A program made the position numbers and the translations under genes. This document shows positions 5,134-45,771 of a DNA stretch of 64,000 bases, piece after piece (the first letter of the stretch is position 1; every line of letters starts with the position of its first letter). The DNA is taken from assembly GCA_020854145.1 (NCBI GenBank), contig JADZFZ010001118.1, positions 14,067-78,066 on the forward strand. Direction: 5' to 3'. The stretch comes from Deltaproteobacteria bacterium (GTDB taxonomy: Bacteria; Myxococcota_A; Polyangia; Polyangiales; JADZFZ01). Below the pieces are notes generated by a model. The model did no database searches. It saw only the letters and a program-made list of their open reading frames with translations, and was not told the DNA's origin.

Positions 5134-5151
5134 CGTGCAGACGTCTGCACG
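5134..5151. repeat. Palindrome copy 1: CGTGCAGACGTCTGCACG (intergenic, fibre / lysis-side junction)
   Basis: Perfect 18-bp palindrome, 22 nt upstream of ATG 5111. Confidence 0.95.
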
Positions 5152-5162
5152 CGTGGCAGGCG

Positions 5163-7109
5163 TCAGGCGGGCGCTACCCAGGTCGCGCCGTTGATGGTGC
5201 CGGTGTTCGCCGGGCTCGCGGCCCAGCCCGAGATCGTGGCGGCGTCGTCGGCGATGCTCGTGCCCGTGCCCTCGTCGAGCTTCCAGAGCGACGTCAGTCC
5301 GCGGATGACGCGACGACGTTGGTAGTTCTGCGCGGCCTCCGAAGCCGTGAGCGAGAACGCGTACCAGGCGATCTCGTTCAGGTCGCCATTCCAGTAACCG
5401 CTGGGCCCCGCCCATCGGCCGAGCTCGACGGCTTGCGCGACGTCCGGGAGCGTCGCCGGGATCGTGCCGGTGAACGCGAGCACCTGCGCGACGCCGTCGA
5501 CGTACACCTGCAGCTTGTCGGCGTCCGTCGCGCCGCCGCCCTGGTAGACGACGCAGAGGTGGTGCCAGACGCCCGTCGAGGGCGCCGTGCATTCCCCGTA
5601 GATCGTCGTCGTCGAGAGGCGAACCTGCAGAACGGGGCCCGTGTCCATGCAGACCACGAACGCGCTCGCGGGGTCGGGCCCGTGCGACGCAATGCAGCGG
5701 AAACCCGAGCTCGCGTCCTGCTTGAACCAACAGTCGAAGGAGAATGCGACCGCGTTGCTCAGCGACGACGCATCGGGAATCGAGACGTAATCGTCGGTGC
5801 CGTCGAATGAGAGGCACCAATCGCCGAACCCGTAGAGATCTGGGAGGCGCGATTGTCCGACCGGCTCGGTCGCCTCGACGAAGCCGGTCACGTAGCGCGT
5901 GCCACCGGCGTCGTTCCGCACGTACAGAGCTCCGTCGCTCGAGTCGGCGAAGAGAGCGACCTTCTTCGCGGCGTCGAGGAAGACGGCGTGATTCGGGGCC
6001 GCGACGACGTAGCCGGTCGGCGCGCCACCCGAGAATGTCATCGACGCAACCCGCGGCGCGCGAAGCCCGGGCCCGGTGAATCCCGCCGCATCCCAGCTCG
6101 AGGCGCCGTTGTGATTCATGTCGCCCGCCTCGCCCGGACGAATCTCCGACGTGTGCACGCGTCCCATGCCGGAGAGGAATCGCTGACGCCAATCGATTGA
6201 CGAATCGACCAGGCGCTCGACGCCATTCGCGAGCGTCGCGCCGAAGAATCGCTTGTGACTGCCGACGAGGGCCTGCCGTTGCTCGCGAGCGACGAACGCT
6301 CCGAGCGTCGCGCTCCAATCGTTCGTGCGGCGCGTGCCGGTCGCGGGAATCGCCGGGCCCACGAGACCACGATCCGGACGCGCCTGCGGGCCGAGCGGAA
6401 TGCAATCGCTGTCGAGCCACGAACCCGCGACGACCGCATTGCCGCCGCGGAGCTGCACGAGCATCGCGGGATCCTGCAGCAGGTTCAGGTCGGCGGGCGC
6501 GATGGTCTGCCCGTCGCTCGCGAGGAGCGCGGGCACGGCCGACGGTGCCGTGTAGCGGATGCCCAGCCGCTCGCTCGCCCAGATCACGAGACCGATCGTC
6601 ATCCGCTCGTGGCCGGCGGTCGGCGCGACCTCGAGCGCAAGCGCACCCTCTTTCGCATCCGGCGCCGCAGTGCCCACCGCGAAGAGGTGCACGCCCGTCG
6701 CGAGTCGAATGTGTTGCGCCGCGACCGACTGTCCGATGTTCACGCCGTCGCGCGTGTAGCCGACGAACCAACCGAGCGACTCGAAGTCCGCGTCGTTCGG
6801 GTGACCGGGCCATGCCGCCGGTCCGGTCGCGAGCACCGGATGATGGAAGGCCGCGACGACGAGCAGCCGATCGCGCCACTCGGTCGACGCGTCGAGGATG
6901 CACGTATCGGCCGACGCACCCGGACGCGTCATGACGCGCGTGAGGCCGAAGCGTCGGAGCCCCCCGATTCCCGCGTACGACGCCCACGCATCGACGCCCG
7001 CGCCCGCCGCTTTGCGGAGCGATGCCCGATCGCGGAGCGACGTCGCGAACGACGCCGAGAGCTGCGTCAGCGGGCCAGCCTCGGGAAACTGATAGAGGTA
7101 GCCGGGCAC
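5163..7109 (-). CDS. Tail fibre / receptor-binding protein with C-terminal LamG (concanavalin-like lectin) domain
   Basis: 648 aa. The C-terminal ~200 aa (DWCLSFDGTDDYVSIPD...WHHLCVVYQGG...LQVYVDG...GDLNEIAWYAFSLTASEA) match the LamG/Laminin_G_3 pattern. Confidence 0.8.
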   Translation of the reverse strand: MPGYLYQFPEAGPLTQLSASFATSLRDRASLRKAAGAGVDAWASYAGIGGLRRFGLTRVMTRPGASADTCILDASTEWRDRLLVVAAFHHPVLATGPAAWPGHPNDADFESLGWFVGYTRDGVNIGQSVAAQHIRLATGVHLFAVGTAAPDAKEGALALEVAPTAGHERMTIGLVIWASERLGIRYTAPSAVPALLASDGQTIAPADLNLLQDPAMLVQLRGGNAVVAGSWLDSDCIPLGPQARPDRGLVGPAIPATGTRRTNDWSATLGAFVAREQRQALVGSHKRFFGATLANGVERLVDSSIDWRQRFLSGMGRVHTSEIRPGEAGDMNHNGASSWDAAGFTGPGLRAPRVASMTFSGGAPTGYVVAAPNHAVFLDAAKKVALFADSSDGALYVRNDAGGTRYVTGFVEATEPVGQSRLPDLYGFGDWCLSFDGTDDYVSIPDASSLSNAVAFSFDCWFKQDASSGFRCIASHGPDPASAFVVCMDTGPVLQVRLSTTTIYGECTAPSTGVWHHLCVVYQGGGATDADKLQVYVDGVAQVLAFTGTIPATLPDVAQAVELGRWAGPSGYWNGDLNEIAWYAFSLTASEAAQNYQRRRVIRGLTSLWKLDEGTGTSIADDAATISGWAASPANTGTINGATWVAPA

Positions 7110-7112
7110 GTC

Positions 7113-8288: not shown

Positions 8289-8298
8289 GGGCTACGCC

Positions 8299-20921: not shown

Positions 20922-22436
20922 TCACGCCACCTGGCGAACGTCGATCGCGAACTGGTGCGCGCCCTCGATCACGTCGAGCGGCACCGAGCAGTTGAATCGC
21001 CCCGCCGGAGCCGGCGCGAGCTCGACCACGATCTCGCTCTTGCGCAGCTCGACCGAACCGGGCTCCAGGAGCCCAGCGGCCTCGTGCCCGAGGAGCCGTG
21101 CATACATCCAGTCCTTCAGCATCAGCGGGGTGACGACGCCGTCGGGCGGCGGGTCGCCGTCCGGATCGTCGGCGCCAGCCTTGAAGCCGGGCGTCGTGCC
21201 ATGCGCCCCGAACTCGGCGGGCACTCCCACCGCGAAGTCGTCGGCGACGAAATCCGGCACCGTCACCTTCGTGGTGTCGAGCACCGAGTACGACGGGTTT
21301 GCAGCGGCGTCCTGCGAGCGCGTCGTGATCGAGCGCGTCAGCAGCTGCTCGCCCGCCGACACGCGCAGCGGAGTGATGCCGTTGTTGAGCGCGCTCTTGA
21401 GATTCGCGCCCGTCGGCCAATCCGCTGGGCTGTAGCTCGGCGCGATCCCCGACACGATGAGGTCGTCGAGGTTCACTCCCGGATCGCTCGACTCGTGTCG
21501 CGCACGGAGCGCGGCGGCCGCCGCGGCGATCTGCAACGGGAGCTGCTCGGGCTTCTTCTGCCACACGCACTGCATGCGCGCGGCGTTCATCCCCGTCGCG
21601 ACCGTCGTGGCATCCGCGAGCGTGCCCCCGAAGCCGAAGATCACCACCTGGCGCTTGCCGTGATCGGGCCCGGCGTACGTGTTGACGTGCGTCCGGTACC
21701 GCGTGAGGTCGGCCGTGTCCGGCGTCGCGCTCGCACCCTCGCCATCGCTCGCCGCGACGATGTAGTGATGCCGGAGCGCCGCCACTGCATCGAGTGCGTT
21801 CTGCGAGTTGTCGGGAGTCGCGCCGCCGGTCAGGTAGCCCGTCGCGGGACCCGTGATCGTGATGCCTGGCGTGTTGCTCACGACGCGCAAGCTCGCGCGG
21901 TTGCCGCGAGGGCCTTTGTGGATGAACGTAACCGTGCAGTTGGCCGCTGCCGCCATCGCGGTGCCCTTGTCGAGCGGCCAATCGGTCATGTCCTCGAGGG
22001 CGGCCTCGAGCGCGACCGCAACGTTCGCGGCCGTCGTGCCCGACGCGATGGGCACGTTGATAGTCTGACCGCAGTAGCTGACGTCGATGGTGCCATCGGC
22101 AGTCGCGGTACCGGAGGCGGCCAGCACTCCCGTTGCGGCCGTGCCGCCGCTCTCGGCGACCGCAATCGCGTACAACGGCACGCCCGGCCAGACTGCGAAT
22201 GCTGCCTGGCAGCCGAGCAGCAGCTCGGAGCCCGCCCCGAAGAGCGTCCGAGCGTCGTCTTCCGACGTGACCGCGTAGCGGGTCGCTACCGTCGCGGTCC
22301 CCGCCGCCGTCTTGTTGCCGCAGAGCAGCACGAGGCGCGGTGCATCGGCAGCGCTCGTGGCTCCGACGCCGAGCGTCACCTGCAGGAAGGTTCCCGGCCG
22401 CTTGTCGTCGGCCGAGAGGATGCTCGCGAGGGTCAT
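20922..22436 (-). CDS. Contractile tail sheath protein
   Basis: 504 aa. The N-terminus RPGTFLQVTLGVGATSA...LVLLCGNKT is typical of sheath proteins. Synteny. Confidence 0.8.
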   Translation of the reverse strand: MTLASILSADDKRPGTFLQVTLGVGATSAADAPRLVLLCGNKTAAGTATVATRYAVTSEDDARTLFGAGSELLLGCQAAFAVWPGVPLYAIAVAESGGTAATGVLAASGTATADGTIDVSYCGQTINVPIASGTTAANVAVALEAALEDMTDWPLDKGTAMAAAANCTVTFIHKGPRGNRASLRVVSNTPGITITGPATGYLTGGATPDNSQNALDAVAALRHHYIVAASDGEGASATPDTADLTRYRTHVNTYAGPDHGKRQVVIFGFGGTLADATTVATGMNAARMQCVWQKKPEQLPLQIAAAAAALRARHESSDPGVNLDDLIVSGIAPSYSPADWPTGANLKSALNNGITPLRVSAGEQLLTRSITTRSQDAAANPSYSVLDTTKVTVPDFVADDFAVGVPAEFGAHGTTPGFKAGADDPDGDPPPDGVVTPLMLKDWMYARLLGHEAAGLLEPGSVELRKSEIVVELAPAPAGRFNCSVPLDVIEGAHQFAIDVRQVA

Positions 22437-24874: not shown

Positions 24875-24896
24875 CGCGTGCAGACGTCTGCACGCG
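24875..24896. repeat. Palindrome copy 2: CGCGTGCAGACGTCTGCACGCG (intergenic, head / neck junction)
   Basis: Perfect 22-bp palindrome between stop 24907 and ATG 24857. Confidence 0.95.
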
Positions 24897-27175: not shown

Positions 27176-28336
27176 TCAGTTCCCCTTCTGCGCGTCGTAG
27201 CGCGCTGCGCGCTCGCGGATCGCATCGGCGCGAACCTGTTCGATCGATGGCTCGGCGTCGCGCTGCCCGACTCCCTCGGAGCCGGCATCGAACGTCACCG
27301 ATCGAGCGTGGTGGCGATGAGCGCGGACGCTGGCCTCGTACGCGCCGACCAGGAAGTCACCGCTCTTGCCGTCGAGCTTCGCCTCCGGATCGACTGCGAG
27401 GATCACCTGACGGCGTACCTCGTCGTCGGAGAGAGCATCGAACGTCGGTTCCTTGCCCGTGTCGTCGGGCCCGATGACCCGGGCTGCGTCCCGCTCGAGC
27501 TGCACGCGCGCACGCACGCGGCCGTCGAATCGCTTCGGGTCGCTCGCCTCAGCGAGCGCGGCCTCGGCCTTGTCGGCGCGCGCCTTTTCCGCGGCCGCCG
27601 TGCCCTCGGCCTTGTCGGCGCGGGCCGTGGCGCCGTCCGCCCTCTTCGTCTGCTCGTCCAGGTCCGCGAGCACACGCTCGATGAGCGGTGCGACGGACAC
27701 GGCGAGCTCGACGTCGACACCGTCCACGCGGACGGCCTTCGTCTTGTCGCTCATGTCGATCTCCTTGCCGTCGCGGTGCGCGGCCGGTTGCTCGATCGCG
27801 TCTCTCGCGTCGAGATGCATTCGGACCTCGGGTCCAGCGCGTCCCCACTCGCGCGGCCCGACCGCGACGTGGTTGTGGACGATGCCGCGCTGGATCGCGT
27901 CGTACTCCTCACCGTCGGCCGTCACGCCTGGCGTCGGATCGACGGTGCACGTGTAGCCACACGACACCTCAACGCGGTCACCGCGGAGGACCGCTGCACG
28001 CGTCGTCTCGGCGTGAATGACCAGGCTCGCCGCGACGTACTTCTCATCCCGGCGTGGATTCTCCACGTGCCCGACCGCGTACTGCTTCCAGTTAGTCGGC
28101 GAGACGAGCTCGTCGGGGTGGAGGTCGGTCACCGACACGCCACGAAGCGACTTCACCGCATCGTCCGCGAAGACCTCTTCGGGCAGTCGCAGCTCGCGCA
28201 CCTTCGAGTTGTCACCGCGCGTGTAGGTGAAGACACCCGTGCGCGTCAGGAACGCAGGGACGCGGATCCCCCCGTCCGCCATCGTCTCGACCTTGCCCGT
28301 CGAGCCGCGGTCGTAGCGGTTCACCCGCTCGGTCAT
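27176..28336 (-). CDS. Prohead protease/scaffold protein (DUF2213-type)
   Basis: The N-terminal half (GIRVPAFLTRTGVFTYTRGDNSKVRELRLPEEVF...VSCGYTC...HNHVAVGP) fits DUF2213. The C-terminal half is coiled-coil and scaffold-like. Confidence 0.75.
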   Translation of the reverse strand: MTERVNRYDRGSTGKVETMADGGIRVPAFLTRTGVFTYTRGDNSKVRELRLPEEVFADDAVKSLRGVSVTDLHPDELVSPTNWKQYAVGHVENPRRDEKYVAASLVIHAETTRAAVLRGDRVEVSCGYTCTVDPTPGVTADGEEYDAIQRGIVHNHVAVGPREWGRAGPEVRMHLDARDAIEQPAAHRDGKEIDMSDKTKAVRVDGVDVELAVSVAPLIERVLADLDEQTKRADGATARADKAEGTAAAEKARADKAEAALAEASDPKRFDGRVRARVQLERDAARVIGPDDTGKEPTFDALSDDEVRRQVILAVDPEAKLDGKSGDFLVGAYEASVRAHRHHARSVTFDAGSEGVGQRDAEPSIEQVRADAIRERAARYDAQKGN

Positions 28337-28347: not shown

Positions 28348-29898
28348 TCAGGGAGTGACCCGGCCAGGCGTGCTGCCGTCGCTGGGCTCCGACGTCCCGG
28401 CGTCGGGTGATTGCGGACGTTCTGCCGCGCCCGTAGGAGCGACGGGCGGCGCGGGCGGATTGCGGGCCACCTCGAGACGCCGTTTCATGTCGAGCTCCCG
28501 GAGCTCGTGCCGAGCGTGGCGATCGATTGTCGTCTCCGGACTCCAGCCGTGATCGGTGAACCGGGACAGCGCGACCTCGTGCGGGGAGAGAATCTGTGCC
28601 TGGACGTACAGGGCATCTCTCTTCGCGATCGCCTCTTGCTCTGCCGCCCTGTCCTTCGGCGTACCCGTCCAGAGCGGGGGAAACGCGATCGACAGGCGCC
28701 GCGGCACACGGCCACCGGTCGGCCCATCTTGGGCGAGCAGGAGAATCGAGATTGCTCGCTTGATCGGTCGGCGCAGCCGTTGCCGTTGGTACTGTCCGAC
28801 GGTGTCGTACCAGACGGTTTGATCGCTCGTACCCGTAGCGTCGAACCCCGTCGGCGATTGACCCATGAGCACAGTCACCGGCATCTCGAATGCCGCCGCG
28901 AGCCGGAGCCAGGTCTTGTCGGCGAGCTTGTCGGCGCCGCTCATCTCCGAGCTGCGGCGCTCGAAGCTCTCATGCTCCTTGTCGACCGCGATGGCCCGAT
29001 TCGACGCCCGATTCTTGTCGAGGAACTCGAGCCGCTTCTGCACGACGGCCTCCTGGCCGCTGCGGATGAGCTCGACGAGGTCTTTCAGGCCGAAGACGCC
29101 CTGCGAGAAGTCGTGCATCAGGTGGCAGATCGATTGCCAGTTTGCGCTGCACGAAACGAGGGTGGCGTACACCCTCACGAGAACCGAGTCGTCCCATCCA
29201 CCGTTCTGCCAGAAGCGGAAACGCGTCGTCGCAGCACCACCGAAGACGACGAGCCTCGACTCGTGAATGACGCCGACCCGACCTTCCTCCTCGGCAATCG
29301 GATGGTGCCAGTAGGTCTCGGCCTGTCCGGCCTTCTGGTGAGGGGCGCGGTACCGCGACCTGACCGTGAACGAGCGCCGGTCATATGCGTGGATCCCGTC
29401 GATCGCGCGGATGCTCGACTCATCGAGCGGTTCGTGTGGATAGCGGCCGTCGTCGCAGTCGAAGTACAGAATCCCGCCGCCGAACAATCGACCCCATCCG
29501 GCACAATCGACGAACTTCGTATCGAGGTCCCACTCGTCGAGGTCCTCGATGATGTCACCGGCGAGCTCCTGTGCCTCCCCCGGATCGTCCTCGCTCTTCG
29601 CCGTGCTCGGGCGCACGACAACGTTGTAACCGAGCTTGAAGGCCTCTTTGACGATGGCGCCGACCCCACGATGCGCGAAGTCGTCCTCGGAGTAGAGCGC
29701 ATCGAGCTGGTAATCGGTGAGATAGAGGCCCGGCGCGAACTCGTGATAGGTCGCCTTGTCCCGAGACGTGCCGAGGCCGGTGACGAGGTTCTGCCAGCCG
29801 TCGCGGCGCGACGGATGCATCGACGCCGCGTAAGCCTCGCCGGGGCGCAGCCGGGCCGCATCCTCGACGAGTCGCAGGCTGGCTCTCGACATGCTCAA
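28348..29898 (-). CDS. Portal protein (DUF1073-type)
   Basis: 516 aa. Translation RRDGWQNLVTGLGTSRDKATY...LDALYSEDDFAHRGVGAIV. Follows terL with a 4-nt overlap. Confidence 0.85.
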   Translation of the reverse strand: MSMSRASLRLVEDAARLRPGEAYAASMHPSRRDGWQNLVTGLGTSRDKATYHEFAPGLYLTDYQLDALYSEDDFAHRGVGAIVKEAFKLGYNVVVRPSTAKSEDDPGEAQELAGDIIEDLDEWDLDTKFVDCAGWGRLFGGGILYFDCDDGRYPHEPLDESSIRAIDGIHAYDRRSFTVRSRYRAPHQKAGQAETYWHHPIAEEEGRVGVIHESRLVVFGGAATTRFRFWQNGGWDDSVLVRVYATLVSCSANWQSICHLMHDFSQGVFGLKDLVELIRSGQEAVVQKRLEFLDKNRASNRAIAVDKEHESFERRSSEMSGADKLADKTWLRLAAAFEMPVTVLMGQSPTGFDATGTSDQTVWYDTVGQYQRQRLRRPIKRAISILLLAQDGPTGGRVPRRLSIAFPPLWTGTPKDRAAEQEAIAKRDALYVQAQILSPHEVALSRFTDHGWSPETTIDRHARHELRELDMKRRLEVARNPPAPPVAPTGAAERPQSPDAGTSEPSDGSTPGRVTP

Positions 29899-31355
29899 CC
29901 TGCTTTCCTACCAGTCAGGCGCTCGACGAACTCGACATAGCGAGAGATGTCCGCCGGCGCGAGCTCGACGATGCCATGACATGCAGAGTCGACGCGGTCG
30001 TCGAGCTTCAGCCGCGGCCAGCCCACATGCTCGTCGATGAAGGCCTGATTCCAGGATCCGCGCAGCAGGTAGCCGTTGCCCGCTTGCCAGATTGCCGACG
30101 ACGAATGGGCGCGGGTGGCCTTGTTTCCATTCTCGACAGCTACGAATCCCGGAACCTTCCGCCGCATCGTCTGCACGCACGCCGCGCCGTTGGCCTGCCG
30201 CTCGACTGCCGACTTGAGAACCTTCGGCCACTTCTGTCGGGCGCGCGCCATTCGCACGAGCGTCTCATCGAATGTCGAGCGGCCCCAATCCACGTCAACG
30301 ACGTAGATGTCCGACTCGATGAGAACGAGAGTGGTGCCGACAACGGGATCCCGCTTGTCCGGATCGTCTTTGTCGCCGAAGTTGCAGTCCCACGCCTGGA
30401 TCCACACCCCCGGCTTGTTGGGCAGCTCATCGACGATCTTGAACCAGGCGCGCTGGAAGACTCCCCCGCTCTTTGCCTGAGGTCTCTGCTGTAGCTGAGC
30501 GGCGACGTTCGCCGGCGTGCGTAGCTTCCGCTTCAGGCGCTCGACAGCCTCTCGATCGAGACGCTCGGGACAGAGCAGCTCATAGGGGTCGCGCCGCCAG
30601 TCCTCGCCCCAGGGCGTCGCGCTGTGCTCCTCCGGGTCGTACTCCATCGGCAGCACGAGCTGCACGGTGTCTTCGTCTTCGATGACGACGCCCGTCAGGT
30701 CCATCTCATGGACGCGCTGTTGGACGATCACCGAAGTGACGTGCGAGGGCTCGCCGCGCGTGCCCCACGTGCCCGACCACGCATCCGCGGTCGCCTCTAG
30801 CGCCTTCTTGGTGACTCCCTTGGTCGCGTCCGCTTCCTTCGGCGGATTGGGGTCGTCAGCGACCTTGAAGTCTGGGTGCCAGCCGGTGACCTGACCGACC
30901 ATGGTCGTTGCGAAGCGCAACCCCCCGGCCGTCGTCGAGTACTCCTGCCCGCTCTCGGTCGTGTCGTGATCCAGCCGCGCAGACCAGCGAGCTCGGTACC
31001 ACTCCGAGCTAACGAGCTTGTGTGTGCGTTTCGAGTCGCGTCGGCTGAGACGCTCGCTGTAACTGCCGAATATCCACTTGGCGGATGGGTCGATCTCGGC
31101 CCAATGCCAGGCCGTCCACGCCCTGCAGATCAGCGACGACTTGCCGAGACCCGGGGGGATGTTGATGACGAGCGTCCGGCCCCGGAGCTCGCCCCGGGAA
31201 GCGGCCTCGAGGTGCCGGCAGATCAGCTCGAGGTGTCGCGCTCCGACGAAGGGCCGACCTTGCTCGATGATCGGCCAACACAGCCGGAGGAACGCGTAGA
31301 GCCCGCCGCGCCGGACCTCGTCGCGGTCGAGCTCGACTTGACTCGGCAGTCGCAC
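29895..31355 (-). CDS. terL: Terminase large subunit
   Basis: 486 aa. Walker A-like VINIPPGLGKSS and a nuclease-type C-terminal half. Position between the terS-like and portal genes. Confidence 0.9.
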   Translation of the reverse strand: MRLPSQVELDRDEVRRGGLYAFLRLCWPIIEQGRPFVGARHLELICRHLEAASRGELRGRTLVINIPPGLGKSSLICRAWTAWHWAEIDPSAKWIFGSYSERLSRRDSKRTHKLVSSEWYRARWSARLDHDTTESGQEYSTTAGGLRFATTMVGQVTGWHPDFKVADDPNPPKEADATKGVTKKALEATADAWSGTWGTRGEPSHVTSVIVQQRVHEMDLTGVVIEDEDTVQLVLPMEYDPEEHSATPWGEDWRRDPYELLCPERLDREAVERLKRKLRTPANVAAQLQQRPQAKSGGVFQRAWFKIVDELPNKPGVWIQAWDCNFGDKDDPDKRDPVVGTTLVLIESDIYVVDVDWGRSTFDETLVRMARARQKWPKVLKSAVERQANGAACVQTMRRKVPGFVAVENGNKATRAHSSSAIWQAGNGYLLRGSWNQAFIDEHVGWPRLKLDDRVDSACHGIVELAPADISRYVEFVERLTGRKAG

Positions 31356-31356: not shown

Positions 31357-32013
31357 TCACGCCACCTGCGGCTTCGCTATCCGCGCCTTCGCGCAAAGCG
31401 CTCGGAGCGTCGCGGCTTCCTCGTCGGTCAGACGAGAGAGGTCGTACTCGACGTGCGCGTCGGCTATCTCTCGCTCGCGACGCTGGCGCGCGACGTCGGT
31501 CGCCGTCGCTGCGATCTTCTGCAGCTCGTTTGCCGTGTACGCGCCCTCGCGGCCGAGCTCGCGGCGAAGTGTCGTCTCGACGACCTCGAGCAGGTCACCT
31601 GTGCAGACGTCTGCACGCACGCGCGTGGCGTCGTCATTCGCTGCGCTCGCGGAAGTCAGCCCCGCAGACCCGCTCGCTTCGTCGGGGGTACTAACCGTAG
31701 TGGTGGCCCCCCCCGCAGGTCCGCCGTGCAGCGGGATGACGGCCGCCAGCGTCTGTTGCGGGGACCTCGGGCGGCCGTCCTCCGCGTCGATCCTCGCCTG
31801 CCAGCGCCATCGCAGCGACATCCGCTTCAGTGTCGTGATCGAGCGGCCGTCGCGAACGAGCCGCTTCAGCGATCGCGAGCTCGGCGGCAGTGCCGCGTAC
31901 TCCCGAAACGCGTCCCACGCGTCGCCGGGCTCCGACGGATCGCGCGTGGTCACTGGTACCAGCGTCCCTGGTACTGGTACCTGGTACCGGAATCGGCTCG
32001 GTACCAGAAACAC
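31357..32013 (-). CDS. Terminase small subunit-like DNA-binding protein; start uncertain (GTG 32013 or GTG 31953)
   Basis: Lies immediately upstream of terL. HTH-like SLKRLVRDGRSITTLKRMSLRWRWQARI. The first 20 codons of the long form are translated GGTACC repeats. Confidence 0.55.
   Translation of the reverse strand: MFLVPSRFRYQVPVPGTLVPVTTRDPSEPGDAWDAFREYAALPPSSRSLKRLVRDGRSITTLKRMSLRWRWQARIDAEDGRPRSPQQTLAAVIPLHGGPAGGATTTVSTPDEASGSAGLTSASAANDDATRVRADVCTGDLLEVVETTLRRELGREGAYTANELQKIAATATDVARQRREREIADAHVEYDLSRLTDEEAATLRALCAKARIAKPQVA
31601..31616. repeat. Palindrome copy 3: GTGCAGACGTCTGCAC (inside the terS-like gene)
   Basis: Perfect 16-bp palindrome. Translated RADVCT. Confidence 0.95.
31953..32005. 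repeat. Cluster of five GGTAC(C) motifs, including the 10-bp palindrome CTGGTACCAG
   Basis: TGGTACC at 31954, 31975 and 31982; TGGTAC at 31969; GGTACC at 32000. All read directly from the sequence. Confidence 0.95.
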
Positions 32014-32920: not shown

Positions 32921-33684
32921 CACTCGCCGTGCTCCCGCAGCTCGTCGGCACGAGCCCGGATTGCCTGCAGCAGCCCCGTTCGCGGGTCTGGCATCGGCAG
33001 CAGGTCGCGCGCGGCGAGCTCGACGACGACGACGCGTCGGCCATGCTCGACGACGGCATGCACGGCGTGCTCTGCGAGGCCGTGCACGGCCGCGAGCTCG
33101 CGCAGCTTCACCACACGTCGATAGCTGCGCTTCGTGACCTCGGGCAGCCCGCAGACGGCCTCGACGAGCAGCTCGACGCACTTCTCGTAGCGCAGTCCCT
33201 GACGGGCTTCGTAGGTCGGCGCGGCCGGTCGGTACGCCTCGAGGAGCGCACGCTCGATGGGTGTGCTGGACATGCCACGCACGAGCGCCGTCTCGGTCCC
33301 GTCGCTCCGGTGCGATCCGCAACCGACGGTACCGCCCTCGAGCGCGGCGAGCTGACGACCGAGCGCGCTCGCAGAGGGGTCGTAGCTCCGACGCGCGGCG
33401 AACGTCAGGAGGGCAGCGTGCAGCGACGGCCACCCACGCTCGACGCCCTGACAGCGCGGCCCCCTCCACTCACCGAGGACCTCGTCGCAGAGCCCCTCGA
33501 GGACCTCGCGCCACAGGGCAGCCTGGCGCGGCGCCAGGGGCTCGTGCAGCGACCGCGGCCACCGCAGATCGTCGGGCTCCGGAAAGCGGTCGCGGGCGCG
33601 CGGAGTGCCGCGCGCCTTCCGCTTCGCCGGCTTCCTGGGCGCCTCGATCCCGAGGACGTCGAGCAGCTCTTCTTGCGTCGGCAT
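32920..33684 (-). CDS. Hypothetical protein (254 aa), possible late-gene regulator
   Basis: ATG 33684 overlaps the primase stop. C-terminal HTH-like RSYRRVVKLRELAAVHGLAEHAVHAVVEHG. Confidence 0.5.
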   Translation of the reverse strand: MPTQEELLDVLGIEAPRKPAKRKARGTPRARDRFPEPDDLRWPRSLHEPLAPRQAALWREVLEGLCDEVLGEWRGPRCQGVERGWPSLHAALLTFAARRSYDPSASALGRQLAALEGGTVGCGSHRSDGTETALVRGMSSTPIERALLEAYRPAAPTYEARQGLRYEKCVELLVEAVCGLPEVTKRSYRRVVKLRELAAVHGLAEHAVHAVVEHGRRVVVVELAARDLLPMPDPRTGLLQAIRARADELREHGE

Positions 33685-36600
33685 CAGCGGCCCTCCTTCG
33701 GTGGCTCGGCGAGCACGGCGAGCACGAGCTCGGCGCGGTGCGTCGCGATGTGTGCGCGCAGCTCGGCGTCGACGACGCCCTCGACGACCAAGCACTTGTC
33801 ACGGTCGCGCACCCAGACGCGGAGCCCGAGCACCCGCAGCTCCTCGAGGAGCACGGCACCGTTGCCGACTTCCTCGGGATCCTCTTCGGCCTCGCCGCGC
33901 CCGAAGAAGTGCTCCCCGCTTTGCGGGGTTGCGGGTGTTTGCGGAGTCTGTTCCCCCTCGCGTGCGCGTGTGTCTATCTCAGTCTGCGCCACTGCCGCTG
34001 GCAGTGGCCCTGATTGAATCTCTCGCGCGTGGGGGTTTGGAGACTCCGCAAGACCCCGCACCCCCGCAATCGTCCCTCCGGTGCCGGCCGCCCTGACGTT
34101 CTCCTCGGTCGCCTCGACGACCTGCCACTGCAGGATCTTCTCGTGGCTCTCGTAGACCGAGGAAAGGACAAGACCGGCAACAACCCGTCCGCGGAGCTTC
34201 TTGAGCGCCTGGCCGACGCGCGTCGAGCTCGGGACCTGGCCACTCTTGAGCCGACACAGCTCCTCGACGCTCTCTCGCAGGCCCGCGAAGTCCGCCGGCG
34301 GCGACCCTTCGGGGAAGAGGACCTCGATGGCGCGCTTCGCGCTGATGGCCGGCTCCTTGAGCCGTTCCTGCAGGCGCGCCCAACCCTCGAAGAGGCGTGC
34401 ATGCGTGGCCCCGCGCGAATCGGCCGAGGCCCGTAGACCTGGGCGCGTCTTGCCAGGGTCGTCGAGACCAGCCCACACAACCGCTTCGCGTACGAGCGCG
34501 CCCCAATCCTCGTACGTGTTCCACCCATCGAGCCCTTGCGACGGGCGTCCAGCGACGTGGTAGCCGCGGAGGATGGTGAGCGCGGCGCAGAGCAGCTCGG
34601 CTCTCTTGGCGCGCACGTAGGGCATCAGGGGGAAGTGCTTGAAGTCCGTGCGCTCCTCGGGTCGCTCCACCTTCGACAGCAGGCGCACGTGGCAGACACG
34701 GCGGTGCATGTCGTCGCTGATCGAGACGTTGTTTCCGGTCGCGTACCAGGTCACGACGAGCGGGCCCGTCCAGCTCGTGTTGCCGCCGAGGACTCGACCC
34801 CCGTACGCGGTTGCCGTGAGGGCGTTCTCGAAGCTGGCGCCCCCCATCGTCGTGTTGACGTTGTCGAGCAGGATCACCCGTTCGCCCGCCATGGCCCACG
34901 AGAGGATCCGCTTGTCCATCTCGTCGTCCTCTTCCGCGAACTTCGAGCGCGCCGGCGGGCGCGCGAGCGCGATGAGACCGACGACGTCGGCGAGCAGGCC
35001 CTTGCCCGTGCCCGGCGTAGTTGCGTCGATGAGGAACAGCGGCGAAGGCCCCCGAAACGCGAATCGTGCGATCGGCGTCAGGACACTGGCGACCCACGCG
35101 GCCAGGTGCGCGGAGCTCTCGAAGATGAAGTCGCACACGACCTCGCAGAGCAGCTCGACGGCCGCGAGGACCTGCGCGCGCGTCGGCGCCTCCGGTACCG
35201 GAGGCATCCGATCGTCGAGCAGGAACAGCCCCGTGGTGGCGTCGTAGCCCTTGGTCGCGAGCACGCTCCCATCGGGGCGCAGCACGGGACACTCGACGAT
35301 CGCCTCGAGGTGCCGGAGGTTGGGCCAGTCTCCGCGCGCCATGATCTCCTGCACGGTCCACTCGGGCACGTGCGCGGCGCGGTCCCATACCTCGCCATCG
35401 CGCGTCATGCGCTCCTCGACGAACCTGGCGACGCTCGAGAGGATCTCGCGCACGCGGGCCTGCGGAGCAGCGACGATCGACGGCGCGTCAGGGTCGCGAA
35501 TGAGCCCGCGCGGGAGCTTGCGGGGCTTGTGGATCGTGACGAGCGCCGAGCCACGCCGAAACAGTGGACGCGCTCTAACGAGCGCGCCGAGGGCTTCTTC
35601 GGTGACTTCGTCCTCTTCCGTTCGCACGACGATGCGGGTGCGTTCATCGGGCGCGGGCCCGTTTCCGTCGCCCGACGAGCTCGGCGGCGGCGCACCAGTG
35701 CCACCGCTCGCGCCCTGGCTGCCCGCTGGCTCGCGACCCTTTCCTGCGCGCGTGCGCAGCGATACGGGAGCGCGACGCGGCTGCTTCATTCCCGCCTCGA
35801 GCGCGCGGCCGAGCAGGTCCTCGAGCTTCTTCGCGGGCCACGCGCCCTGGCGATTCGCAGCGTCGCGCAGCGTCGCCCGCGCTTCCTCGAGATCGATCTC
35901 GTCGCCGGCGACGAGCTGTCCGATCGCGAACGCTTGCTCGTTCACCGTGTCATTGCGCGTTCCCTCATCGGCTCGCACGACGATCGCGAAGGCACGCTCG
36001 AGCGCGCCGCGGCCGTACTTCGTCGTGCGCTCGGACGCCGCTGGCGTGGTGCGAGCTCGCGGTGTGTCGGCGCCGACGCCGACCATCAGATCGTACAGCC
36101 AGCGCGGTAGCTCCGCGATCTCGGCCTCGACCGTCCACGCGTACCGGCCGCCGCTCTTGTGCACCGACGGCGCAACGACGATCTGCCCACCCTGCGCGCG
36201 CGCGTCGAGACCCCGCCCGATCTTGCCGGCGCGATTCTTCACGTGCGGCAGCTCGAGCGCCTCGGGACATCGGAAGATCCGGTGCTCGCCCCCATCGGCG
36301 CGGCCGCTCCGCGAGGTCAGCGTGACCGGCAACGGGCCGTGCGCCGCCTCGAGCGCGGCGAGGCTCTCGCGTCCGGGCGCACCGTCGACGTCGAGCGCCA
36401 CGAGACGCTCGTCGCCGCCCATCGCCATCCCGACGTTGCTGCCTGGCCATCGCGCCCACCACGCGCGGACGGTCTTCCGATCGCGTGACGCGTGCTTCTG
36501 CCACTCCTTGATCCGCGGATGCTTCCCCGCCGCGTCGTGCACCTTCTGATTGCACTGACAGCGCCCGGACGGCACGTTTGCAATCCCAAAGAGCGGCAAC

Positions 36601-37247
36601 ACGCGGAACCCGATGTGCGCGTAGTACTCGGCGGCCTTCGCGACCTCGAAGTCGTTCGCGCGGGTGATGCGGACCACGCAGGGCGCACCTGACCCGGGCC
36701 GGGCGGGTGACGGATTCGGTGACGGGTTCGCACCCCCGGAATCCGTCACCGGTGACGCATTCTCACCCTCGGGTGACGGATTCGCACCCCCAGATACCGT
36801 CACCGGTGACGCATTCTCACCCTCGGGTGACGGATTCGCACCCCCAGATACCGTCACCGGTGACGCATTCTCACCCTCGGGTGACGGATTCGCACCCCCG
36901 GATACCGTCACCGGTGACGCATTCGCACCCCCGGAATCCGTCACCGGTGACGCATTCTCACCCCCGGAATCCGTCACCGGTGACGCATTCTCACTCGGAC
37001 CCACGGAATCCGTCACCCGGAAGCGGATCCCCTGCCGGAGGGCGCCGTGCTTGGTACGCACCGGCGGGCCGACGACGACCGTAAGCGCGCGCGCGAGGGC
37101 GTTGTCGCTCAGCTCGACGCGGCCGTCCCAGCACCGCCACAGCGCGAGCAGGGCTGATGTCGAGACGCTCGACTCGGGGTCACGCTCGCAGCACTCGGCC
37201 ACGAATCGGGACACCACGACCTCGATGTCGTCGACGGAGCTCGACAT
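33684..37247 (-). CDS. Replicative primase-helicase: N-terminal small domain, repeat linker, PrimPol domain, P4/D5-type NTPase
   Basis: PrimPol-like GFRVLPLF...GKHPRIKEW...LVALDVDG...HRIFR...VVAPSVH. Walker A DATTPGTGKG. 1187 aa continuous. Confidence 0.85.
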   Translation of the reverse strand: MSSSVDDIEVVVSRFVAECCERDPESSVSTSALLALWRCWDGRVELSDNALARALTVVVGPPVRTKHGALRQGIRFRVTDSVGPSENASPVTDSGGENASPVTDSGGANASPVTVSGGANPSPEGENASPVTVSGGANPSPEGENASPVTVSGGANPSPEGENASPVTDSGGANPSPNPSPARPGSGAPCVVRITRANDFEVAKAAEYYAHIGFRVLPLFGIANVPSGRCQCNQKVHDAAGKHPRIKEWQKHASRDRKTVRAWWARWPGSNVGMAMGGDERLVALDVDGAPGRESLAALEAAHGPLPVTLTSRSGRADGGEHRIFRCPEALELPHVKNRAGKIGRGLDARAQGGQIVVAPSVHKSGGRYAWTVEAEIAELPRWLYDLMVGVGADTPRARTTPAASERTTKYGRGALERAFAIVVRADEGTRNDTVNEQAFAIGQLVAGDEIDLEEARATLRDAANRQGAWPAKKLEDLLGRALEAGMKQPRRAPVSLRTRAGKGREPAGSQGASGGTGAPPPSSSGDGNGPAPDERTRIVVRTEEDEVTEEALGALVRARPLFRRGSALVTIHKPRKLPRGLIRDPDAPSIVAAPQARVREILSSVARFVEERMTRDGEVWDRAAHVPEWTVQEIMARGDWPNLRHLEAIVECPVLRPDGSVLATKGYDATTGLFLLDDRMPPVPEAPTRAQVLAAVELLCEVVCDFIFESSAHLAAWVASVLTPIARFAFRGPSPLFLIDATTPGTGKGLLADVVGLIALARPPARSKFAEEDDEMDKRILSWAMAGERVILLDNVNTTMGGASFENALTATAYGGRVLGGNTSWTGPLVVTWYATGNNVSISDDMHRRVCHVRLLSKVERPEERTDFKHFPLMPYVRAKRAELLCAALTILRGYHVAGRPSQGLDGWNTYEDWGALVREAVVWAGLDDPGKTRPGLRASADSRGATHARLFEGWARLQERLKEPAISAKRAIEVLFPEGSPPADFAGLRESVEELCRLKSGQVPSSTRVGQALKKLRGRVVAGLVLSSVYESHEKILQWQVVEATEENVRAAGTGGTIAGVRGLAESPNPHAREIQSGPLPAAVAQTEIDTRAREGEQTPQTPATPQSGEHFFGRGEAEEDPEEVGNGAVLLEELRVLGLRVWVRDRDKCLVVEGVVDAELRAHIATHRAELVLAVLAEPPKEGR
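36706..37020. repeat. Nested tandem repeats (54-bp x3, then 33-bp units) inside the primase gene, each carrying the palindrome GTCACCGGTGAC
   Basis: GTCACCGGTGAC occurs at 36745, 36799, 36853, 36907, 36940 and 36973. In frame it encodes ENASPVT(D/V)SGGAN(A/P)SPEG repeats. Confidence 0.95.
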
Positions 37248-38166: not shown

Positions 38167-38799
38167 TCACCACCACTCGACCTTCGGGCGATCGGCCTCG
38201 CCTGGCGCGCGCGGGAGCGGGCGAGACGAGAGCTCGAAGACCGCGAAGTCGCTCAGCGGGGAGCCCGACACGGGGCCCTCGAAGCGCGGCCGCTCCGCGA
38301 GCTCGACGACGCGGAGCAGCTCGGCCCATCGCCACACCTGGTTACGGCGACGAGCACCGTGGCGGAACGCGGAGCGCAGCAGCGCGACGACGCGCGGTGC
38401 GTGCTCGAGCGCGTGGAGCACGAAGCCGATGTCGCGGTCGTCCTCGTACGGCGGATTCTGCAGCGCCAGGTCGCAGCGGCCGACGTCGGTCGCGAGGAAG
38501 TCGCAGTGTCGAACGTCCACGTTCAACCCGTGGTAGCGGGCCCGCAGGACCTCGACGTTGGCCTCGTCGAGCTCGCACGCGACGACTTCGATCGCACGCG
38601 ACTCGAGGAGCGGCACGAGCGGGTCGATGAGCGCACCCCGCCCGGCGGCGGGCTCGAGGATACGCATCCCGATCGCCGGCAGCGACCACCGCACGATCCG
38701 TCGAGCGAGCTCGGGCGCCGTGTACCACTGCGAGAGCTCGGCGCACGGATGGTGCTCCGGCTCGAGCCCGCCAAGGAACGGCTGCGTCATGCTGGGCAC
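38167..38799 (-). CDS. DNA methyltransferase, N6-adenine type (orphan)
   Basis: SAM motif ILEPAAGRGAL and catalytic LQNPPY. No adjacent endonuclease. Confidence 0.8.
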   Translation of the reverse strand: MPSMTQPFLGGLEPEHHPCAELSQWYTAPELARRIVRWSLPAIGMRILEPAAGRGALIDPLVPLLESRAIEVVACELDEANVEVLRARYHGLNVDVRHCDFLATDVGRCDLALQNPPYEDDRDIGFVLHALEHAPRVVALLRSAFRHGARRRNQVWRWAELLRVVELAERPRFEGPVSGSPLSDFAVFELSSRPLPRAPGEADRPKVEWW

Positions 38800-41548: not shown

Positions 41549-41552
41549 CCGC

Positions 41553-43429: not shown

Positions 43430-43534
43430 GTTTGCACGGTCGCCGGTCCACCGCGGCTGATCAATCGACCCGTCGAGGTGTACCCTTGACGGTATACCGT
43501 TACGGGGATACTCATCGGGCCTGGAGGTGCACAC

Positions 43535-44035
43535 ATGCCCAGGCCCGCTTCGTCCCCGTCCATCTCGCGCGCTGAGCGCGTGCTCCGCGCGATCGACCAA
43601 GGCTCTGGTCACGAGCTCTCGGTACTCGCGGCGGTCGTCGTCTGCGCGCCCGACGCGCGATCCGTCATCGTCGAGCAGCACACGTCGTGGAGCAGCGCCC
43701 TCGCCGACGCGGGCGCGATCGCCGTCGAGCTCGCGCTCGCGGGGGAGCGCAACGCCGGCGTCGTCGTGATCTCGACGCTGTTCCGCGCGTCCACGTCGGA
43801 AGGCTGGCCGACTCGCGCCGATCGCCAGGTCCTCGTCGCCGACGTCGCCGCGGTGATCGCGTTCGCGCGCTTCATCGCGTGGCTCGTCGAGCAGCTCCAG
43901 ATTCGCGCGATGCAGGCGGGCGCTTACGACCACCCCCGCGCGCAGACGAGCAACCTCGAGCTCTTCGGCCAGCTGATCGGCCGTGGCTTCCCCGCTGACG
44001 CGGCCGCTGCGATCGCGACGGGGAGGGTCCAGTGA
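43535..44035 (+). CDS. Hypothetical protein (166 aa), first gene of the rightward early operon
   Basis: GGAGG RBS 8 nt before ATG 43535. Protein-like translation. Confidence 0.5.
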   Translation: MPRPASSPSISRAERVLRAIDQGSGHELSVLAAVVVCAPDARSVIVEQHTSWSSALADAGAIAVELALAGERNAGVVVISTLFRASTSEGWPTRADRQVLVADVAAVIAFARFIAWLVEQLQIRAMQAGAYDHPRAQTSNLELFGQLIGRGFPADAAAAIATGRVQ

Positions 44036-45771
44036 ACGCGCTCGCGCCCCCGGAGACGGCGGTGGCTGGAGCGACGACGACGCCATTGCCAACCTCATCG
44101 GTGGCGTCGTCAACGAAGCCCTCGACGAGCTCGTCATCACCGGGCGAGTACATCGAGCGCTTCCCTCTCAAGCGCCTGCGCGAGAGCGCGACGAACCCGC
44201 GACGCATCTTCGGCAAGCTCGACGAGCTCGCCGTCAGCATCAAGCGACACGGCGTGCTCGAGCCGCTGCTCGTGCGCCCGGTGCCGGGCAAGCCCGACAC
44301 CGAGATCGTCGCAGGACACCGGCGGTTCCGCGCGGCCACCATCGCCGGCGTCGAGCACGTGCGCGTCATCCTGCGCGAGCTCTCCGACTCCGACGCTCTC
44401 GAGATCCAGCTCATCGAGAACGTGCAGCGCGAGGACCTCCACGAGCTCGACGAGGCCGACGGCTACGCGCAGCTCATCGAGCGGTGCGGCTACACGCCGG
44501 CGACGCTCGCCGAGAAGGTCGGCGTCTCGAAGGCGACGATCCACGCGCGCCTCAAGCTGCGCTCTCTCGGGCAAGCGTGTCGTGACGCATGGCTGAACGG
44601 CGAGCTCGACGCGAGCCGTGCGCTGTACCTCGCGCGCATCCCGACGCAGGCGTTGCAGGAGCAGGCGCTCGAAGAGATCACCAAGGGCACTTTCAACGAT
44701 GGCCCAATGAGCGCGCGCGAGGCGCAAGCTCACATCGCGCACCACTACACCATCGCGCTCGATGAGCGCGCTCGCTTCGACACTGCAGACGAAACGCTGG
44801 ATCCCGTCGCTGGGCCCTGCATCACGTGCCCGAAGCTGTCGGGGAACGCGCGCGACCTGTTCCCCGAGATCCAGCGTGCAGACGTCTGCACGGACCCCGA
44901 GTGCTTCAAGGGCAAGAGCCAAGCGCACTGGAATCGCACCGCCGAGAAGGCGGCCAGGACCGGGTTGCGCGTGCTGAGTGCGAAGGAAGCCAAGAACGCG
45001 ATCGACCCATATGGCCCCACCGGACGCCCCAAGGAGACCTCGGGATATGCCGCCCTCGACCAACAGGCCCCGTGGGTCATCGGCAGAGGCAAGACCTGGA
45101 AGCAGCTGCTCGGGAAGAAGGCCCCCGCTCCGACTGTGATCGCGAGAGACCCTCGCACCGGCGACGCCGTGCAGCTCATCGAACGCAACAGACTCGAGGC
45201 GGTCGCTAAGGAGCACGGCATCGGTCAACCGACCGAAGAAGAGCGGCGAGCGCGAGACGAGGCCAAGGCCAACCTAGAGCGCGCGAACAAGAAGGCTGAG
45301 GCCGACCAGCGAGCACAGCGCGACGTTGCGCTCGCCCTGGTCGCTGCGGCAGAGGCGGGGGGCGGCGAGCAGCTCTGGCCGCTGGTCGCGGCACACCTGA
45401 TCACGATCGAGCGCGAGGGCTACTCCGACAACCTCGACGAGACCGAGATGGCGCAGCGGCGAGGCCTCGACGGCGCGGAAGACGCCTCTGCGCTGCTGCG
45501 TGCTCTGCCGACGATGAAGTCGGCCATCGCGCGTGGGGTCGCCGTCGAGGTCCTCGCGCTCACTGACTACACGGGCGCGATGCGGAGCGAGCTCTGCAAG
45601 CTGCTGGGCGTCGACCCCAAGCGGCCCAAGACGCCAGCGAAGAAGTCGACGGCGAAGGCCGCCAAGAAGACGCCAGCGAAGAAGTCGACGGCGAAGGCCG
45701 CCAAGAAGACGCCAGCGAAGAAGTCGACGGCGAAGGCCGCCAAGAAGACGCCAGCGAAGAAGGGCCGCTGA
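44032..45771 (+). CDS. ParB/Spo0J-like protein with Cys cluster and Lys/Ala-rich repeat tail
   Basis: ParB N-domain (LEPLLVRP...IVAGHRRFRAA; IENVQREDL), HTH (ATLAEKVGVSKATIHARLKL), Cys cluster PCITCP...CTDPECF, and TPAKKSTAKAAKK x3.5. Confidence 0.85.
   Translation: MNALAPPETAVAGATTTPLPTSSVASSTKPSTSSSSPGEYIERFPLKRLRESATNPRRIFGKLDELAVSIKRHGVLEPLLVRPVPGKPDTEIVAGHRRFRAATIAGVEHVRVILRELSDSDALEIQLIENVQREDLHELDEADGYAQLIERCGYTPATLAEKVGVSKATIHARLKLRSLGQACRDAWLNGELDASRALYLARIPTQALQEQALEEITKGTFNDGPMSAREAQAHIAHHYTIALDERARFDTADETLDPVAGPCITCPKLSGNARDLFPEIQRADVCTDPECFKGKSQAHWNRTAEKAARTGLRVLSAKEAKNAIDPYGPTGRPKETSGYAALDQQAPWVIGRGKTWKQLLGKKAPAPTVIARDPRTGDAVQLIERNRLEAVAKEHGIGQPTEEERRARDEAKANLERANKKAEADQRAQRDVALALVAAAEAGGGEQLWPLVAAHLITIEREGYSDNLDETEMAQRRGLDGAEDASALLRALPTMKSAIARGVAVEVLALTDYTGAMRSELCKLLGVDPKRPKTPAKKSTAKAAKKTPAKKSTAKAAKKTPAKKSTAKAAKKTPAKKGR
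44875..44892. repeat. Palindrome copy 4: CGTGCAGACGTCTGCACG (inside the ParB-like gene)
   Basis: Perfect 18-bp palindrome. Translated RADVCT and overlaps the CTDPECF Cys motif. Confidence 0.95.
45631..45765. repeat. 39-bp perfect tandem repeat x3.5 (encodes the TPAKKSTAKAAKK tail of the ParB-like protein)
   Basis: Units at 45631..45669, 45670..45708 and 45709..45747, plus a partial copy. Confidence 0.95.

Follow-up and report, generated by a model that had tools for sequence, protein, structure and literature searches.

Why does a single perfect palindrome recur four times along one prophage, and why does one of its copies lie within the prophage's own ParB-like gene? These questions arise from a stretch of 64,000 nt (the window in what follows, with a G+C content of ~70%) of contig JADZFZ010001118.1 from a Deltaproteobacteria bacterium, in which a prophage of myovirus type, ~47 kb long, carries its structural genes on the minus strand and a ParB-like gene (44032..45771) in its early region. 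An earlier note on this DNA had suggested that the palindromes are sites of the parS or KorB-operator kind for the ParB-like protein, and the comparative evidence described here supports that suggestion. Judging from sequence comparison, we consider that the four palindromes are probably parS-like loading sites for an orphan ParB encoded by the prophage itself, and we give this reading a probability of about two in three. By analogy with known systems, a role in genome-wide control or organisation of the phage DNA appears more likely than plasmid partition.

The 16-bp sequence GTGCAGACGTCTGCAC is present in four exact copies (5135-5150, 24878-24893, 31601-31616 and 44876-44891), all of them within the prophage and none elsewhere in the window, and no extra copy appears in the window even when three mismatches are allowed. 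In dinucleotide-preserving shuffles, chance would provide 0.04 copies at ≤2 mismatches and 0.73 at ≤3. With the flanks included, the dyads extend over 18 bp (5134-5151), 22 bp (24875-24896), 16 bp (31601-31616) and 18 bp (44875-44892), which reproduces all the coordinates and palindrome lengths given before. The sites, together with a related half-site, are listed here without strand:

5135..5150, site 1: in the 51-bp gap between a fibre-like gene (5163..7109, minus strand) and 4698..5111 (minus strand)
24878..24893, site 2: in the 49-bp gap before a DUF4054-like virion gene (24546..24857)
31601..31616, site 3: within a terS-like gene (31357..32013, minus strand), in frame as R-A-D-V-C-T
44876..44891, site 4: within the ParB-like gene, at the (R)ADVCT codons of the four-Cys motif C263/C266/C286/C291
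30168..30182, half-site with flank CGTCTGCACGCACGC: in terL, 15 nt, the same as 31608-31622

Two of the copies had been placed in intergenic gaps of ~50 bp, and the gaps measure 51 and 49 bp. The genes on both sides of sites 1 and 2 are on the same (minus) strand, and the gap of site 2 is preceded by the major-head-protein gene (25254..26318) and then a 115-aa open reading frame (ORF). The GAGGTG ribosome-binding sequence said to follow both copies is indeed there: a GAGGTG Shine-Dalgarno motif and then an ATG are found 12 nt downstream of site 1 and 8 nt downstream of site 2. When the reading frame was checked against the ORF coordinates, both intragenic copies did translate as R-A-D-V-C-T, and in ParB the peptide context of site 4 is QRADVCTDPECF. 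As to the half-site, its recurrence at 30168-30182 stands, while the position given for its counterpart was off by 2 (31608-31622, not 31610). The 30168 copy was also considered as a degenerate full site and rejected, as it is a half-site only with no full palindrome, and its significance is doubtful.

Could the ParB-like protein recognise such sites? The 44032..45771 product contains a ParB_N domain (PF02195, E=9e-23) followed by a helix-turn-helix (HTH) domain (PF17762, E=9e-15), and its score of 123 bits on TIGR00180 (ParB/RepB/Spo0J; cut-off 58.45) places it in this family. The nucleotide-binding motifs GxRRxRA and ENxQR are intact. Among 40 homologues, residues G95, R97, R98, A101, E129, N130 and R133 are invariant, and so are C263, C266, C286 and C291 of the ribbon-like four-Cys motif. 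The closest sequences in the PDB are Thermus Spo0J, Caulobacter ParB and Noc (E 1e-29 to 1e-25), KorB being a far weaker match (E=1e-6). An AlphaFold2 model has a mean predicted local distance difference test score (pLDDT) of 84.9, and its N-terminal ~200 aa superpose on the Caulobacter ParB-parS structure 6t1f with a template-modelling (TM) score of 0.83-0.86 and a root-mean-square deviation of 2.3-2.5 Å; the DNA-contact segment GKS[KR] is conserved in the family. No Pfam domain was matched C-terminal of the HTH, a region in which residues ~290-525 are modelled as helical with confidence and have no PDB match listed. When the post-HTH module with the four Cys was used as query, it retrieved 4,537 clusters (at 50% identity) at E<=1e-3 and 2,033 at E<=1e-10; the former number indicates that the family is large. 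The protein ends in a tail encoded by a perfect 39-bp x3.5 tandem repeat (45628..45762), Lys/Ala/Pro-rich (TPAKKSTAKAAKK x3), and this repeat explains why A strongly outnumbers T at 44-46 kb. Being Lys-rich and histone-H1-like, the tail is probably a non-specific DNA-binding element. In several family members (P0016, P0018, P0025, P0027, P0029, P0035, P0057 and P0067) a C-terminal H-NS DNA-binding domain (PF00816) replaces the Lys-rich tail, which hints at a nucleoid-silencing or anti-silencing function in these homologues.

The protein appears as an orphan. A ParA Walker box (KGGxGK[ST]) is absent from every reading frame of the 64-kb window, the window ParB lacks the ParA-interacting motif [LFI]G[KR]G[LFI] (consensus LG[KR]GL), and the ORFs neighbouring parB gave zero matches to Pfam and curated family profiles. 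The two marks of a ParABS system, an adjacent ParA and a ParA-binding motif in ParB, are thus both missing from it. Nor does the prophage have the features of an autonomous low-copy replicon: it is integrated, with a tyrosine integrase gene beside a tRNA-Gly. The PADLOC models of defence systems returned a sole match, ParB_N to a methyltransferase, which we judged spurious.

If the palindrome in parB were only a by-product of the protein sequence, its codons should resemble those of the rest of the gene. The ADVCT amino acids fix ~10 of the 16 bases of the palindrome, and for this reason only the free positions were tested. The site codons of 78 distinct homologues were compared with the rest of the same genes; the p-values given below ignore shared ancestry, most of the proteins being <50% identical to one another:

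Ala codon GCA: 79% at the site, 10% elsewhere (p=8e-29)
T as third base of the preceding codon: 65% at the site, 13% elsewhere (p=4e-27)
Asp codon GAC: 93% at the site, 69% elsewhere (p=2e-6)
Val codon GTC: 71% at the site, 44% elsewhere (p=6e-5)

AGT-GCA is used at the site even in genes of 70% GC (L241 and L252). A metagenome replicate of 39 distinct genes gave the same picture, with GCA in 17/24 (vs 13%, p=2e-10) and the preceding T in 24/39 (vs 11%, p=4e-14). Since the synonymous positions are constrained, and towards the otherwise rare GCA and xxT codons, the in-gene copy is selected as DNA.

Are further copies found where such ParB genes are? We collected 80 viral loci, picked only by ParB homology, with ≤10 kb on each side. 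In this sample GTGCAGACGTCTGCAC is the commonest perfect 16-bp palindrome (25 copies vs 4 for the next one); it lies exactly at the xADVCT codons in 19 of the 80 ParB genes, and most of the others differ from it by ≤2 mismatches. Extragenic copies number 4, 13 and 20 at 0, 1 and 2 mismatches, against a uniform expectation of 0.0003, 0.015 and 0.33. Furthermore, 300 control palindromes with the half-site permuted at the same composition gave means of 0, 0.06 and 1.0, compared to 20, 29 and 35 for GTGCAGACGTCTGCAC. Extra copies around ParB genes are therefore enriched ~100- to 10,000-fold. Loci whose in-gene sequence has decayed to ≥4 mismatches almost never show extragenic copies, and lineages with an altered recognition helix (e.g. 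SQTKTYVAQR vs GKSRAYIYAR) have zero sites. The same metagenome sample, also chosen by ParB (39 distinct genes), yielded 6 exact in-gene sites and 9 with one mismatch, in addition to 2, 4 and 9 extragenic copies at 0, 1 and 2 mismatches. The earlier note had asked whether related prophages bear the motif and whether it co-varies with the ParB-like gene. Both turned out to be so: the exact motif is present in those 19 ParB loci and within the gene of the two closest relatives, and co-variation is seen in the codon constraint, the extragenic enrichment and the tracking of a ParB residue by the class of site.

This last point concerns a second palindrome, GTGCACACGTGTGCAC (class B), which differs from GTGCAGACGTCTGCAC (class A) symmetrically at positions 6 and 11 and was found in 78 viral stretches, often several per contig of 31-41 kb. 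The two classes hardly mix: loci selected by class A hold 129 A sites and 0 B, and those selected by class B hold 2 A sites and 85 B. The in-gene copy could be read in 9 ParB genes from class-B loci, and in 8 of these it is the hybrid GTGCAGACGTGTGCAC with the Val codon GTG; its left half is unchanged because Asp prevents the change, while GTG converts the right half-site to class B. The equivalent of A194 of the window ParB is Phe or Tyr in 9 of 11 ParB genes from class-B loci. At this position, small or polar residues (Ala, Pro, Ser and others) are found in the class-A and unbiased ParBs, with three exceptions (Aval, which is class B itself; L304, with Phe and no sites; and L201, with Trp). 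In a phmmer alignment, A194 corresponds to A200 of Caulobacter ParB, and S195 to G201. G201 is one of four specificity residues of Caulobacter ParB; it contacts half-site position 6 and separates parS from the Noc-binding site, NBS (PMC7383237). As far as sequences can tell, this co-variation ties together the extragenic sites, a synonymous codon of parB and a DNA-binding residue of its product.

Other pairs of protein and site were also considered. A 92-kb contig (IMGVR_UViG_3300044464_000108; L290, L330-L347) encodes a diverged ParB with no in-gene site and the altered helix GKDASYVYSRIKL, and displays ~14 dispersed copies of a 16- to 20-bp palindrome, (TC)GGAAGATCGATCTTCC(GA), 4 of them within the L290 locus. 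From this single case (n=1), the two may form a second specificity pair of ParB and site, or the palindrome may be a repeat of the host. When ParB loci were searched de novo for further repeated palindromes, the outcome was mostly GC-rich coding noise, L290 being the only clean case. An outer-position variant, TTGCAGACGTCTGCAA, that appeared to co-vary with a G-to-K change in GKSR (the L254 group) was dismissed as unconvincing, T at position 1 being common across lineages.

Do relatives keep the sites, and where do they lie? The two closest ParBs (49% and 43% identity) belong to related high-GC prophages that keep the exact in-gene site and have one more each; in one of these relatives (L323) an exact copy occupies the same gap, between the fibre gene and the next one, as site 1. 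In a collection of cultured phages, homologues reaching through the Cys motif were found only in Variovorax phage VarioGold (VG_p35) and Acidovorax phage Aval (gp06). These two lambdoid siphoviruses encode an integrase (attP is annotated in VarioGold) and carry parB in a leftward early operon between a CI-like repressor gene and int. Six sites at ≤2 mismatches are spread over VarioGold at intervals of 2.4-9.8 kb, and the exact one lies 31 nt past the major capsid gene in a GGCC...GGCC-T-run hairpin. Aval shows five or six sites of the GTGCACACGTGTGCAC variant, one of them directly after the capsid gene. The presence of the same protein and site on myovirus and siphovirus backbones indicates that sites were acquired repeatedly.

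In the window, VarioGold and Aval most of the sites outside parB are intergenic or ≤~40 nt from a gene end, despite the high coding density. Three placements recur. One is just past the major capsid gene, as in VarioGold and Aval and, one ORF further on, in the window. Another is the head of the structural operon, where the window has a copy in terS; in a group of betaproteobacterial prophages (L010-type) the site comes after a terminator-like T-run and 3-20 nt before the first gene, ahead of terS/terL. The third is 84 nt upstream of a gene for a Dam-like methylase, identified from its ORF sequence (L012/L086/L202). Window sites 1 and 2 show neither an intrinsic terminator pattern nor a sigma-70-like promoter. 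As RNA, the window sites fold into stems of 6-9 bp that are no more stable than shuffled sequences at 3 of the 4 sites, and a T-run follows only 9% of non-ParB copies. We infer that hairpin stems already present between genes tolerate the sites and are perhaps where they evolve most easily. The hairpin may have a structural role, but this cannot explain the invariant 16-mer or the link to ParB.

In public collections the exact GTGCAGACGTCTGCAC occurs in at least 120 viral stretches and at least 120 genome stretches, compared with only 11 viral contigs for the unrelated 16-bp palindrome GGAAGATCGATCTTCC used as control. Among the matches listed, the GC content of the DNA ranges from 0.37 to 0.74; many matches are viral contigs of 31-45 kb that have 2-5 copies each, and prophage-like regions of Betaproteobacteria, Myxococcota, Acidobacteria and other groups account for others; no genome contig, multi-Mb chromosomes included, has more than 3 stretches. 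This last figure indicates that GTGCAGACGTCTGCAC is not a REP-like repeat of the host genome, the possibility that had been raised as a test of the earlier proposal and to which the confinement of all window copies to the prophage also bears. A recurrent flank, GTGCAGACGTCTGCAC(t/c/g)GA(c/t)CC..TG(c/t)TT, encodes ADVCTDPxCF, which is the same position of the ParB gene as in the window. As many of the matching contigs are 35-42 kb long, Mu-like transposable phages were thought of and rejected: an integrase is encoded in each of VarioGold, Aval and the window, and their layouts are of lambdoid or other type. In a Myxococcota MAG (metagenome-assembled genome; JBPOHC010001045.1, L154 6666..6723) three tandem palindromes stand in an intergenic region at a 22-bp period (two helical turns). 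The array may be likened to an operator or centromere array, and no ParB gene was detected in its 8-kb stretch. A full-text literature search for GCAGACGTCTGC produced two irrelevant matches only, in the VarioGold paper ParB appears just as a domain match and repeats are not mentioned, and the motif is not described in a survey of orphan ParBs (PMC12704722).

Taken together, these observations would fit the following mechanism. By analogy with ParB, Noc, KorB and BisD, the HTH domain of a ParB dimer would read the 16-bp dyad. The dimer would bind CTP through GxRRxRA and ENxQR, close as a clamp and slide off the site; related folds can bind ATP or GTP instead of CTP (PMC12704722). Spaced every 7-20 kb, the sites could allow ParB to cover the whole ~47-kb phage genome. 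Inside parB, one site would be retained at the codons of the conserved ADVCT motif, and the others would be gained independently on different phage backbones, favouring gene junctions where a fixed 16-mer or an existing hairpin stem is tolerated. After induction or infection, ParB might control late transcription over long distances, in the manner of KorB and BisD, or it might compact or mark the replicating phage DNA. The lack of ParA, the integrated state, the location of parB in an early operon and the genome-wide spacing of sites make classical partition unlikely and favour long-range regulation or organisation. More tentatively, and with chances that we put somewhat short of even, GTGCAGACGTCTGCAC and its variant GTGCACACGTGTGCAC may represent a conserved 'phage parS' of the orphan four-Cys ParB family of ~4,500 clusters, which would coat or switch phage chromosomes across phyla and morphotypes. 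This would amount to a CTP-gated 'phage chromatin' controlling late transcription, anti-silencing or defence evasion, not segregation, with the in-gene site as a locked anchor.

Several points weigh against assigning the sites to ParB. Every link between them is correlative. N178 and R204, which contact DNA in chromosomal ParB, are not conserved in the window ParB, so the binding geometry may differ. A ParB gene is present in only 16-19% of the stretches selected by the motif, and one motif contig is ParB-free in stretches totalling ~25 of its 31 kb (with possible overlap between stretches); the former figure is compatible with a ParB elsewhere on the contig because exact extragenic sites usually lie >10 kb from parB. 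Additionally, the ParBs with Phe or Tyr form one clade (62-87% identity), which reduces the A/B co-variation to essentially one evolutionary transition, and two loci (L396 and L418) are exceptions to it. The conservation of site 1 in L323 may reflect simple shared ancestry, the intergenic region being generally conserved. Finally, some copies lie within terminator-like hairpins, and positions +-9 and +-10 are complementary beyond base frequencies (94 vs 59 and 88 vs 55, of 213).

These points lead to the other explanations. The palindrome might be bound by a different dimeric protein, either a phage regulator or a host factor, the copy in parB being incidental as ADVCT codons are near-palindromic. 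The ~10 of 16 bases that ADVCT alone fixes speak for this, as does the fact that most motif-selected stretches show no ParB gene in the retrieved DNA. It is nevertheless unlikely: the synonymous positions are constrained too, as expected from an in-gene copy selected as DNA; extragenic copies cluster near ParB genes and are absent where the recognition helix is altered; and the class of site shifts with a DNA-binding residue of ParB and with the in-gene Val codon. A single host factor is itself improbable with hosts that span Beta- and Deltaproteobacteria, Acidobacteria and others. We consider it marginally less probable still that the copies work as hairpins (a terminator or attenuator, a stem-loop for RNase III or mRNA stability, or a cruciform) instead of protein sites. 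A structure does not need an invariant 16-mer across GC contents of 0.37 to 0.74, many copies, two of those in the window among them, fall within coding sequence, and the link to ParB and the A/B co-variation would be left unexplained. It is true that the extragenic copies of the window sit in gaps between co-directional genes, that the VarioGold copy after the capsid gene, with GGCC/GGCC and a T-run, looks like an intrinsic terminator, and that the complementarity at +-9 and +-10 and the RNA stems of 6-9 bp accompany them; against this, the T-run is restricted to those 9% of non-ParB copies, window sites 1 and 2 lack the terminator pattern and three of the four window folds are unexceptional with respect to shuffled sequences. 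Both functions could coexist, sites having evolved inside existing stems.

Very improbable, in our opinion, is a mobile or genome-wide short repeat of the REP or MITE kind, or a remnant of a duplicated parB fragment, with no phage-specific function. The 16-mer does occur in many bacterial genomes, three copies are in tandem in the Myxococcota MAG and there is some similarity of flanks among cyanobacterial matches. However, the matches listed include ≤3 stretches per genome contig, and the flanks of different copies are unrelated, which argues that they are neither duplicated fragments nor a transposing unit; moreover, the window has no copy outside the prophage and it is around ParB, specifically, that copies are enriched. 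On balance, parS-like loading sites for the orphan ParB remain our preferred explanation for the four palindromes.

Gene calls in the window were made by GC3 and annotated with Pfam and PHROGs, and the gene identities proposed earlier (ParB_N with HTH_ParB, terS-like, terL, portal, major head protein and tail sheath) were all recovered. The genes of the prophage relevant here are:

5163..7109, minus strand: fibre-like Laminin_G_3 protein (Pfam/PHROGs)
20922..22436, minus strand: tail sheath (Pfam/PHROGs)
25254..26318, minus strand: major head protein (Pfam/PHROGs)
27176..28336, minus strand: protease (Pfam/PHROGs)
28348..29898, minus strand: portal (Pfam/PHROGs)
29895..31355, minus strand: terL (Pfam/PHROGs)
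31357..32013, minus strand: terS-like gene (Pfam/PHROGs)
33684..37247, minus strand: prim-pol of 1187 aa, early region
44032..45771, plus strand: ParB-like gene, 579 aa, early region
45773..46345, plus strand: 190-aa ORF directly 3' of parB, 58% identity in the closest relatives, no family match
47443..48606: tyrosine integrase, early region, adjoining tRNA-Gly
48665..48739, minus strand: tRNA-Gly, the likely attachment end of the prophage

The early region additionally encodes an HTH regulator and an M78-like protein. The ORF at 45773..46345 is a possible operon partner of parB, and orthologues of its product have a weak match to DNA_pol_B_thumb (Pol-beta-type). On the other side, a 166-aa ORF (43535..44035) overlaps the start of ParB and is kept beside parB in the closest relatives at 33% identity; its product ends in an IGRGF/VARGL motif that resembles the ParA-binding consensus. 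A small methyltransferase-like protein of the prophage is encoded at 38167..38799 (weak matches). In the 5' part of the prim-pol gene, a tandem array (36718..36994; 54 bp x4 and then 33 bp x3.5, 95% matches) contains six copies of the near-palindrome CCGTCACCGGTGACGC; it has an iteron-like look and could be a candidate origin of phage replication. Past the tRNA-Gly there are two further tyrosine recombinases (48752..50068 and 58905..59864) and a DUF927 protein (53018..55267), which suggests a second integrated element in tandem (48665..64000).

Orphan ParB-like proteins borne by prophages are abundant and functionally uncharacterised (PMC12704722). Our results provide a concrete candidate for the cognate DNA site of one large subfamily of them, along with two natural specificity classes and a residue that may determine specificity; two of the phages, VarioGold and Aval, are in culture. 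If the assignment is true, the biology of CTP clamps would be extended beyond segregation and the regulation of plasmids and integrative and conjugative elements (ICEs) to genome-wide control in temperate phages that integrate. A 16-mer conserved in phages of several phyla would be explained as well, and a sequence signature would be available to detect such prophages.

Compared with known systems, the likeness to ParB-parS and Noc-NBS is the closest in sequence: the window protein has a ParB_N domain with GxRRxRA and ENxxR, a homologous HTH and its closest PDB relatives among them, and keeps the equivalents of G170, K171, S172 and R173 as GKS[KR]. The site is a perfect 16-bp palindrome with a central ACGT common to parS, and class B shares CACGTG. 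A parS site within a parB-family gene is also known, in spo0J of B. subtilis. In contrast to ParB-parS, the window ParB is without ParA and without the ParA-binding motif, and does not conserve N178 and R204; a four-Cys motif, a long helical C-terminal region and a Lys-rich tail take the place of the usual C-terminal dimerisation domain; and the phage sites are dispersed over the genome instead of clustered near the origin, with a different half-site sequence. The PRTRC-system ParB profile (TIGR03734) matches residues 52-306, through the four-Cys region, but with 120.3 bits it is far under the cut-off of 278.6, and no genes of a PRTRC cassette were seen in the window. Dispersed centromere sites are described, as cited in PMC3235114, for RK2 and for the plasmid prophage N15 (SopB, four centromere sites), where one inverted repeat scattered over early and late phage regions is bound by the phage's ParB-family protein. 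N15 is maintained outside the chromosome as a linear plasmid prophage and has a SopA ATPase and true partition, whereas the phages described here integrate and have no ParA.

The mobile-element regulators are closer in the role that we propose. KorB of the IncP plasmid RK2 acts on 12 dispersed OB operators as a CTP clamp, with long-range repression together with KorA (PMC11790492). It resembles our case as a ParB-family protein of a mobile element whose palindromes cover the whole replicon, several of them by operon starts. It differs in its distant sequence (E=1e-6 vs 1e-29 for Spo0J), in the unrelated sequence of OB and in having a ParA partner, IncC, and a co-repressor, KorA, neither of which was found in the window. 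BisD of ICEclc loads at two intragenic bisS sites 2 kb apart, GAGCTATCCCCnGGGGATAGCTC, and spreads over ~50 kb (PMC12409273). Its element is an ICE and not a phage, bisS has another sequence and copy number, and BisD activates with BisC, a partner whose like was not identified for the window ParB. In turn, BisD is likewise an orphan ParB-like CTPase of an integrated element, with palindromic loading sites inside genes, an extra C-terminal domain absent from ParB and a role in gene regulation instead of partition.

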